A stretch of DNA of 3,469 nt from Planctomycetota bacterium. Its GTDB lineage: Bacteria; Planctomycetota; B15-G4. Within the stretch, counting starts at the first letter, position 1, and every line of letters starts with the position of its first letter. Under the pieces are notes generated by a model. It ran no database searches. It saw only the letters and a list, made by a program, of their open reading frames with translations, and was not told where the DNA came from. Below, piece after piece: positions 631 through 1,968 of the stretch. Both the position numbers and the translations under genes were made by a program. Location of the stretch: positions 1 to 3,469 of the forward strand of contig JBBQUR010000040.1 in NCBI GenBank assembly GCA_038212275.1, read 5' to 3'.

Positions 631-1968
631 TCAGCGCGGCGGTGCGATCCACTCCGCGTCGTAGACGTCCACGAAGGCCGGCGCGACGCGGTCCGCGGGC
701 GCGCTTCCTGCGCGCTGCAGCCAGAAGCCGATGGGGCCTTCGTCGTCGTCGCCGTTGCGGCCATTGAGGCCCGAGCTGCCGTGGCGCGTGCCGCGCGCCA
801 GCAGGTCGAAGCGCGTGAAGGCGCCGGTGGAAAGGTCGAAGCGCGCGCTGCCGAGGAGCGACAGGCGCATGGCGCGCGGATGCTCGCCTGGCCACTTCCA
901 CGCATTCTCGCCCATGAGCCACGGGCCCTTCGCGACGCCGGCGGTCTCACCGGACAGCGCGAGGTCCACGCTGTCGCCGTCGCGCGCGACGACTCTCGCA
1001 CGCAGCGTGCCGCTGACTTCCTCCGACGCGAAGGGCTGCACCTGTCCCTTGACCGCATCGACGAAGTGGAAGCGCGCGAGGCGGGCGACGAGCGCTTCCG
1101 GAACCTCGTGCGTGTCGCCGACGCGTGGATCATCCGGCAGGAAGCGACGCGCCTCGACGTGCGAGAACCAGGCGTGATCGCGCTGCACCGGCGGCTGCGG
1201 CGCTGCGGAGGGATCGCCGTCGGCCGGCAGGTCGCGGCTGAATTGCTCCAGCACGAGCCCGTCCACGGGGCAGCTCGTTTCCCAGCGGAGCACCGGCTCG
1301 TCGATCGCGCCGTCGGCGAGCCAGCGTCGGCTGTCCGGCAGCGCGTCCCACGCGGCTTTGCCTCGCGCGAACAGCTCCAGCGCCTTGTCGACCTGCAGCA
1401 CGTTGGCGGCGGCGAGCAGCTCGCCGCTCGGCGCGACGATGTAGATGCCCTGCCGCGTGCCACCGCCCGCGCCGGTGTGTTCCGGGTTCACCATCTCGCG
1501 GAACATCCGGCTTTCGGCGTCCTCGCCGTGCTGCAGGCGCCAGGTCTCGTCGGCCGCCGGCACGAAGGAGCGCGCGGCCTCGATCACCTGCTCGTTGCTG
1601 AACACGGACGCACGGCCCGCGACGCCGTTGCCTCAGGTACACCCCAGCGGGTGCCCGTTCATCATCCAGAGCAGCAGCGGCCGGCGCTCGGTGTTCGCCG
1701 CCCGCAGGCCGTCGGCGAAGCTCGCGTGCCAGCCGATGCGCTCCCACGCGCGCTCGGCCTCGCAGGGGCGGATGTGATCGCGCCACGCGTCGAGCGATGC
1801 GGCGGACGCCTCGGATCGTGCGGCCGACGACGCCCGCTGCGCGACCTGCGCCGACGCGACCTGGGCGAGTCCCGCCGTCAGCACCAAGCCAGCGAGGGTG
1901 ATGGCGCGCGCCCGGCTGGTGATGGGCTGCGCGAAGGAGCAGATCACGTCGGGTTCCTTGCGGGGCAT
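631..1968 (-). CDS. Putative exported selenoprotein: N-terminal thioredoxin-like (SELENON-like) domain with a C-x-U motif plus a C-terminal domain of unknown function; in-frame TGA (Sec) at 1635..1633
   Basis: ORFs 1633..1968 and 631..1605 share a frame. Reading through TGA 1635-1633 gives ...IGWHASFADGLRAANTERRPLLLWMMNGHPLGCT-U-GNGVAGRASVFSNEQVIEAARSFVP..., a continuous Trx-fold pattern with U at the redox-motif position. There is a hydrophobic signal peptide (RARAITLAGLVLTAGLAQVASA|Q). Length is 445 aa from ATG 1968, or 438 aa from the alternative GTG at 1947, which has AAGGA 7 nt upstream. Confidence 0.85.
1603..1621 (-). promoter_or_regulatory. Candidate bacterial SECIS hairpin
   Basis: mRNA +12..+30 after the UGA reads CGCGGGC-CGUGC-GUCCGUG: a 7-bp stem (2 G-U pairs) and a 5-nt loop that starts 18 nt after the UGA with G then U at loop positions 2-3. 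This fits the published bacterial SECIS consensus. Folded by eye only. Confidence 0.55.
1955..1959 (-). promoter_or_regulatory. Shine-Dalgarno-like AAGGA for the GTG start at 1947
   Basis: Minus strand reads AAGGA-ACCCGAC-GTG (7-nt spacer). No comparable SD is visible before ATG 1968. Confidence 0.5.

Follow-up and report, generated by a model that had tools for sequence, protein, structure and literature searches.

Introduction

Thioredoxin-fold selenoproteins whose selenocysteine (Sec) insertion sequence (SECIS) lies within the open reading frame (ORF) are well known, and catalogued bacterial examples combine a Sec residue in a redox motif with a stem-loop after the UGA codon, relatives that carry Cys, and gene calls that are cut at the UGA. 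The present study concerns a candidate gene of this kind in a stretch of 3,469 nucleotides of Planctomycetota bacterium DNA (GCA_038212275.1, contig JBBQUR010000040.1, positions 1 to 3,469), the whole of which is referred to here as the window. A sequence-only reading of the window had proposed that two 'hypothetical' ORFs are in fact one gene with an in-frame UGA in a C-x-U motif. The family to which this gene belongs shares all of the features listed above, but fits none of the NCBIfam or Pfam models of the catalogued thioredoxin-fold selenoproteins and differs from them in motif and architecture.

In thioredoxin folds, the nucleophilic first Cys of the CxxC motif is situated at the N-terminus of the active-site helix. 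The described domains that most resemble the window protein are those of the Thioredoxin_7/Thioredox_DsbH (DUF255) group, which includes Chlamydia DsbH (2ju5), a Bacteroides fragilis DsbD-C-terminal-like protein (3f9u), Methanosarcina 3ira, Brucella Bab1_2064 (7tkv), AGR2/AGR3 and ERp18/19. The likeness extends to the predicted fold, the probable extracytoplasmic location and the succession of a Trp-containing helix, a K/R-P-hydrophobic strand and the active-site loop. In contrast to these domains, the window protein has no Pfam match at E ≤ 1, carries C-x-U instead of CxxC with position +3 vacant, possesses a longer strand-helix loop (NGHPLGCTU), and is fused to an additional domain of approximately 225 residues.

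Eukaryotic SELENOF (Sep15) carries a Cys-x-Sec motif, while mammalian thioredoxin reductase ends in Gly-Cys-Sec-Gly. The window protein resembles both in having a Cys one or two positions before Sec and glycine flanks, an arrangement in which a small selenenylsulfide ring could close. It differs from them in phylogenetic domain, compartment and partner domains, and no sequence relationship was detected, there being no match to the Sep15/SelM Pfam family at E ≤ 1 for the window protein or for 45 aligned family members.

Published catalogues list 87 selenoprotein families (PMC9312934; 2022) and 119 prokaryotic selenoprotein entries, nearly all of which bear a Pfam, NCBIfam, TIGR or cd identifier (PMC13188914, Table 1; 2026), and the motif and architecture of the window's family are absent from the tables of both. 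The catalogued CxU entries (rhodanese form 3, UshA-like, ferredoxin-thioredoxin reductase and Thioredoxin_3 Sec.1) have models that do not match the window protein, in a comparison that covered the Pfam-A and NCBIfam models, with the catalogue's cd and PTHR models falling outside it. BSepDB and deep-Sep were built on previously reported families, and the passages that present them leave the Planctomycetes unmentioned; a literature search that took in these passages found no description of the family. The 'hypothetical protein GOS_A', with 2 Sec versus 155 Cys forms in the section of PMC2398784 that reports it, displays the opposite ratio to that of the window's family, the comparison being one of ratios and not of sequences. 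Table S9 of PMC4807772 contains one unnamed 'hypothetical' planctomycete selenoprotein candidate, which is neither assigned to nor excluded from the family. The proposal that the protein stands outside the classical selenoprotein families thus holds against Pfam, NCBIfam and both catalogues, and the family is very large and apparently uncatalogued. Its unusual features are the Cys-x-Sec motif, the excess of Sec over Cys forms, export that often involves a lipobox-like signal, and a fused domain that has no clear structural relative.

Two annotated reading frames form one candidate selenoprotein gene

We consider it highly probable that positions 1968-631 (minus strand) of the window constitute a single gene whose UGA specifies Sec and whose product belongs to a thioredoxin-fold family. 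The features on which this assessment is based all lie on the minus strand:

631 to 1968, minus strand: whole coding sequence, 445 codons plus the TGA stop at 633-631, with UGA-112 taken as selenocysteine
1849 to 1968, minus strand: probable signal peptide, residues 1-40, with a positive n-region, a hydrophobic AITLAGLVLTAGLA stretch and VASA before Q, assigned by eye
1330 to 1752, minus strand: predicted thioredoxin-fold domain, residues ~73-213 (model residues 28-168), spanning the UGA
1624 to 1665, minus strand: putative active-site motif M-M-N-G-H-P-L-G-C-T-U-G-N-G, residues 102-115, from the alignment of relatives
1633 to 1635, minus strand: in-frame UGA, putative Sec112, from conservation, Cys alternation and selA co-distribution
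1603 to 1621, minus strand: SECIS-like hairpin, 5' arm 1621-1615, loop 1614-1610 (CGUGC), 3' arm 1609-1603
634 to 1308, minus strand: predicted C-terminal domain, residues 221-445, mostly long antiparallel beta strands in the model

The ORF listing contains a 111-amino acid (aa) ORF (1968-1633) that starts with ATG and ends in W-M-M-N-G-H-P-L-G-C-T-TGA. Beyond this TGA (1635-1633) the reading frame is free of stops through G-N-G-V-A-G-R-A-S and the 324-aa ORF (1605-631), and reading the TGA as U results in a protein of 445 residues containing Cys110-Thr111-Sec112. The ATG at 1968-1966 is backed as the start by a relative (L008) which likewise begins with MPR, and the window copy harbours no stop or frameshift other than the TGA. 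The frame and the coordinates of the proposed merger are therefore correct, and, as judged from its sequence, the candidate selenoprotein gene is real and intact in the window. The gltX fragment (stop at 557-559) and the propeller-like gene (stop at 3147-3149) likewise end in TGA, in agreement with the earlier statement that this codon is an ordinary stop for these two genes and for the selenoprotein gene itself.

Conservation of the in-frame TGA and extent of the family

Searching a protein collection with the read-through protein yielded 208 relatives at E ≤ 0.001. Among the matches listed, coverage of the read-through protein is 74% or less in 119 of 120 (P0106, at 86%, being the exception), which places their start just after the TGA. 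Within 1.84 billion representative proteins, a profile search returned 3837 matches at E ≤ 0.001, among them 2539 at ≤ 1e-10 and 741 at ≤ 1e-30, and 131 of the best 150 representatives begin downstream of the Sec position. Nearly every database entry is consequently a shortened 'hypothetical protein' that lacks the active site, and thousands of gene models would be corrected once the family is recognised. Its recognition would also represent a major addition to the selenoproteomes of these bacteria, given that the catalogues and BSepDB, in the passages that describe how they were compiled, draw on earlier-reported families only.

At the nucleotide level, a six-frame search of 401 species genomes from the window's phylum found a match in 127, and the in-frame TGA is present in 139 of the 150 matches listed (there being 43 further matches). 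The TGA forms of this family thereby outnumber the TGA-less forms, whereas Table 4 of PMC2398784 gives more Cys homologues than Sec forms for the new families of the GOS survey. The 29 best loci were aligned with the window (n = 30), and a further 12 distant TGA-bearing loci of 25-33% identity were added, bringing the total to 42. The TGA column is identical in 30/30 loci of the first alignment, where it is placed within an invariant M-N-G-H-P-L-G-C-T-U and has strong conservation on both flanks, and the nine codons that separate the TGA from the GTG match their surroundings in conservation. The pattern G-[HD]-P-[LM]-G-C-[TV]-U-[ND]-N-G is retained in all 12 of the more distant loci, and this recurrence of the TGA in one motif column greatly exceeds what chance would give. 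Relatives without the TGA are encoded as one polypeptide of 378-469 aa, or as part of longer fusions. Both the conservation of the TGA together with its flanks and the occurrence of the two halves as a single chain in relatives, which the sequence-only reading had put forward as checks, are thus borne out.

The taxonomic range of the TGA form was assessed by scanning one genome per species for the exact DNA pattern of the motif plus TGA, which was found on at least 120 contigs. Among the 80 rows listed, 56 belong to Planctomycetota lineages, ten to Verrucomicrobiota and four to Armatimonadota; Latescibacterota, Neomarinimicrobiota, Omnitrophota, Paracoccaceae and Luminiphilus account for one row each, and five rows lack a phylum label. 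The proteobacterial labels (Paracoccaceae and Luminiphilus) may be the result of binning errors.

Two family members were at times observed a few kb apart on one contig (G157:C1:3132169-3142393; L127/L128, JAJFFF010000047.1:50823-52183; and G320:C321:5258-11287), and in G320 a TGA form adjoins a TGA-less form. Longer fusion forms were also encountered (P0020, P0039, P0124, P0164, P0182 and P0214). One of these, of 728 aa, carries peptidase M20/M28 Pfam domains after the C-terminal domain of the family, while the others, of 812-1541 aa, have the complete module at their C-terminal end.

Residues at the Sec position in relatives without TGA

The residue aligned to Sec112 was counted in the 19 full-length TGA-less representatives among the best 150 of the library search, and was found to be Cys in seven, Ser in five, Ala in two, Asp in two, and Arg, Gly and Asn in one each. 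Five of the seven Cys forms display C-x-C (C-T-C twice, C-N-C twice and C-D-C once). Eight TGA-less loci from the genome sample add Cys in L051 and L053, Asp in L052 and Val in L057; L054-L056 have Ser, in an alignment that is uncertain owing to an insertion, and the residue of L058 is unreliable, its N-terminal part being out of frame. The alternation between Cys and TGA that was anticipated for a Sec codon is accordingly present in homologues, in seven of 19 representatives as well as in L051 and L053. An exported Cys-x-Sec centre with natural Cys, Ser and Ala variants would furthermore offer a test case for the advantage of Sec over Cys outside the cytoplasm.

Selenocysteine machinery of the host and co-distribution with the TGA form

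The assembly to which the window belongs contains the complete machinery on which the sequence-only reading had made its interpretation depend. A selD gene with its own in-frame TGA (354 bits) and an adjoining selA (433 bits) are present on contig C24, where a tRNA-Sec was likewise identified (70 bits with Rfam; called tRNA-SeC with anticodon tca by ARAGORN), and selB is found on contig C1 (326 bits summed). The tRNA-Sec, selD and selA genes are located within approximately 6 kb (G000:C24:59124-65133), with selB apart on C1.

With selA called at E ≤ 1e-40, the gene is present in 290 of the 401 sampled genomes, and in 110 of the 111 genomes that have the TGA form among the matches listed, the exception being a genome (G336) that is 67% complete. 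Three genomes (G142, G148 and G303) have TGA-less forms only among the matches listed, and in these a selA match at the same threshold is absent. A p-value is omitted for this co-distribution because related genomes are not independent. The conserved TGA, the alternation with Cys and the Sec machinery together support the claim that UGA 1635-1633 encodes Sec, and the sequence data make decoding of codon 112 as Sec by the SelB/tRNA-Sec system the most likely reading, the recoding being well supported.

A SECIS-like hairpin downstream of the UGA

The SECIS-like hairpin begins 11 nt downstream of the UGA, and an 11-nt spacing is also that of the minimal E. coli fdhF element. RNAalifold, applied to the 30 aligned sequences, returned a sole consensus helix, at columns 28-33/39-44, with the UGA in columns 13-15. 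When a 7-bp version (columns 27-33 with 39-45, enclosing a 5-nt loop) was evaluated in the 42 sequences, 86.7% of cells were paired compared to 78.7 ± 1.1% in shuffles, of which 0/500 equalled or exceeded the observed value, although this control ignores relatedness. Compensatory changes were recorded at five of the seven pairs, amounting to 23 cells against 6.3 expected, where cells are sequences and not independent events. The covariation score was 0.367, as opposed to 0.236 for shuffles, and sliding the 3' partners by one to three columns left 35-44% of cells paired and a score of 0.03-0.13. Several compensatory changes fall at synonymous third positions, and columns 30/42 show G-C, C-G and U-A among other pairs, while position 2 of the loop is G in 42/42 sequences. 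Bacterial SECIS elements are described as a stem-loop directly 3' of the UGA in a passage of PMC9312934, and a figure legend of PMC2398784 places guanosines in the apical loop; the position of the hairpin and its loop G fit this published description.

Predicted fold, domains and export

The whole protein was modelled with AlphaFold2 from a 45-row alignment after removal of the first 45 residues, which resulted in a two-domain model with a mean pLDDT of 92.6 and a pTM of 0.91. The N-terminal domain gave VIA matches to 3f9u (Z 12.7 over 122 aligned residues), AGR3 (Z 11.5 over 117), 3ira of the DUF255 group (Z 10.6 over 129), DsbH (Z 10.2 over 121) and 7tkv (Z 9.9 over 126), and Foldseek agreed with this group at a probability of 1.0. 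These closest structures are all exported or endoplasmic reticulum-resident domains of Thioredoxin_7/DsbH type. The suggestion that the layout of the N-terminus is that of a thioredoxin fold is consequently upheld by the predicted model and by both structure searches, and we have high confidence that the modelled domain is a DsbH/Thioredoxin_7-like thioredoxin domain, one which spans the TGA.

In the model, the loop NGHPLGCTU joins the strand at residues 53-58 (LLLWMM) to a helix at 68-77 that begins directly after Sec (model residue 67), so that Sec caps this helix at its N-terminus and the TGA falls between strand beta-1 and helix alpha-1 of the thioredoxin domain. From this secondary structure we infer that Sec112 would occupy the place that the nucleophilic first Cys has in a CxxC motif. 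Neither CxxC nor UxxC nor CxxU is found at the start of the active-site helix, the motif there being C-T-U-G-N-G, with the partner Cys110 two residues upstream of Sec and no Cys at +3.

In profile searches with Cys substituted for Sec, the read-through protein had no match at E ≤ 1 in Pfam or in NCBIfam (release 20.0). Sub-threshold Pfam matches among the 45 members comprised Thioredoxin_7 in eight (best E 0.0036) and Thioredox_DsbH in four (best E 0.006), and neither the window protein nor any of the 45 reached the gathering threshold of Thioredoxin_7 (PF13899) or Thioredox_DsbH (PF03190). A profile search of the sequences of solved structures produced only two chance matches, to a viral fusion glycoprotein (E 0.4 and 0.86).

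The C-terminal domain, modelled alone (225 residues), attained a pLDDT of 94.7. Foldseek returned nothing for it at E ≤ 0.001, and the highest Z of a wide VIA search was 6.5, none reaching 8, with up-and-down beta-barrels, membrane and soluble tied, at the top. These Z values are below the level of relatedness, and therefore neither a known nor a new fold is claimed for this domain.

By eye, the N-terminus of the protein resembles a signal peptide, ending in SRARAITLAGLVLTAGLAQVASA before Q, and in the alignment many relatives appear to have a lipobox-like AC or GC at the signal-peptide site. These sequence features suggest that the protein is exported to the periplasm or the envelope.

Alternative explanations and proposed function

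Several observations weigh against the interpretation of the window gene as a selenoenzyme of thioredoxin fold. C-x-U is a non-canonical motif for a thioredoxin. Among the 19 full-length relatives without TGA, 12 carry a residue other than Cys at the Sec position and lack both redox residues, with the remainder of the protein preserved. Redox chemistry is therefore dispensable for the scaffold to function, and the view of the protein as an enzyme is weakened accordingly. The hairpin of the window, when considered alone, is no more stable than its shuffles (z = 0.58, with 141/200 shuffles folding at least as well), the minimum-energy fold of this stretch chooses other pairs, and scanning the window against Rfam matched no family, returning four rows at chance level and nothing near the UGA. 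The helix overlaps conserved codons, and the pairing signal could be due in part to codon conservation and to the presence of two subfamilies. Lastly, the contig is a 3.4-kb assembly-graph loop whose tie to a genome with Sec machinery consists of 98%-identical flanks and binning, although the loop is without effect on the selenoprotein gene itself.

It could be argued that the TGA arose by nonsense mutation, or by an error in sequencing or assembly, and that the gene is a pseudogene here, particularly as the contig is a short assembly loop and as contig C2 of the same assembly carries a remnant copy with an internal deletion. An accidental stop of this type would not be expected to recur in the same column of all 42 TGA-bearing loci aligned and in the great majority of the matches listed, between strongly conserved flanks and in a copy that is otherwise undamaged; this reading is effectively refuted by conservation and its chance is vanishingly small. 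We regard it as extremely unlikely that translation ends at the UGA and that the 111-aa and 324-aa ORFs are separate, perhaps translationally coupled, products. While gene callers annotate the split nearly everywhere and a GTG is available nine codons past the TGA, such a split would sever the predicted thioredoxin domain between strand beta-1 and the active-site helix, and is difficult to reconcile with the conservation of the nine intervening codons, with the single chains of TGA-less relatives and with the co-occurrence of TGA forms and selA. Insertion of a standard amino acid (Trp, Cys, Gly or Arg) at the UGA, by code reassignment or near-cognate suppression, is very unlikely. The computed data do not directly tell which residue is incorporated; nevertheless, TGA terminates three genes of the window, each family member has exactly one TGA and has it at the redox position, the TGA-less relatives have Cys there more often than any other residue, a hairpin downstream of the UGA is conserved, and complete Sec machinery is co-distributed with the TGA forms.

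The protein may act as an extracytoplasmic thiol/selenol oxidoreductase, a mechanism whose chances we judge to be evenly balanced. The short hairpin 11 nt 3' of the UGA would guide recoding, and the selenolate of Sec112 would attack a substrate, which could be a disulfide, a peroxide or another electrophile. Cys110 would resolve the adduct to form an intramolecular selenenylsulfide, an envelope reductant would re-reduce the Cys110/Sec112 pair, and the beta-barrel-like C-terminal domain would supply substrate or ligand binding. Of the original designation 'selenoenzyme', the selenoprotein part stands as a candidate, while the enzyme part exceeds the evidence, given that catalysis is deduced and that many relatives lack both redox residues. 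A doubtful though serious possibility is that this is a true selenoprotein that is not an oxidoreductase, in which Cys-x-Sec binds or detoxifies a soft metal or metalloid, or handles a small sulfur or selenium compound for a transporter, with the barrel as ligand pocket. The C-terminal domain is similar to small up-and-down barrels, some of which bind ligands, yet only with Z 4.3-6.5, below the level of relatedness. A gene of the Na+/solute-symporter family is the divergent neighbour in nine of the 41 sampled genomes that have it, across four families, yet this neighbourhood is not kept in the remaining 32, surroundings are otherwise heterogeneous and no recurrent metal-handling genes were seen nearby. 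The persistence of the protein in relatives devoid of redox residues would also be in keeping with a binding role.

The loss of the redox residues in those 12 relatives and the symporter neighbour point to a role beyond simple disulfide exchange. A more specific proposal, which we rate as rather improbable, is that of an extracytoplasmic, often lipid-anchored Cys-x-Sec protein, among the commonest selenoproteins of the Planctomycetota and their relatives, whose barrel captures a small sulfur, selenium or metal substrate and which works with a transporter of the Na+/solute-symporter type. If true, this would constitute a step in envelope chemistry or nutrient uptake that depends on selenium and has no described counterpart, within a family in which Sec is the rule and Cys the exception.

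Genomic context

The window is an entire contig, both ends of which (1-82 and 3388-3469) consist of the same 82 nt from inside gltX. The end of contig C11 of the window's assembly (G000) is 98% identical to window positions 3213-3469, and contig C3 opens with a stretch that shares 98% identity with positions 1-203, beyond which the two diverge. On account of the identical ends and the 98%-identical gltX flanks, the contig is taken to be a loop in the assembly graph that reflects a strain variant or a partial duplication. The gltX copy of the window is missing its first ~238 codons.

A degenerate second copy of the selenoprotein gene was observed in the same assembly (G000:C2:38200-38912; L071:1700-2413, minus strand), in which residues ~78-170, including GHPLGCTU and the TGA, are fused to the last ~25, the start and the middle ~250 codons being gone.

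The Na+/solute-symporter-family gene encodes approximately 650 aa and is orthologous between families, with 52-57% identity. It adjoins the selenoprotein gene in divergent orientation in G108, G083, G233, G339, G294, G081, G146, G365 and G292, and the two genes are apart in the other genomes that have it. The symporter loci are L219-L248, as exemplified by G108:C55:13642-16853, and in the window's assembly the symporter gene is located on a separate contig, C21. Radical-SAM neighbours were observed in the window's own family only.

Within the window, the divergent neighbour of the selenoprotein gene (2052-3149, plus strand) is the propeller-like gene of 365 aa, whose N-terminus is lipoprotein-like (ending in LIDSAC) and for which Pfam gave only chance-level PQQ_2 and NHL repeats (E 0.38 and 0.46). 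Neither this gene nor the gltX fragment had a tblastn match in 49 related loci. Positions 3134-3194 contain a threefold tandem repeat of a 16-nt unit (GCTGAGCACGCCGCAC-like), which starts at the stop codon with which the propeller-like gene ends, so that the TGA is repeated, and which directly precedes the truncated gltX.

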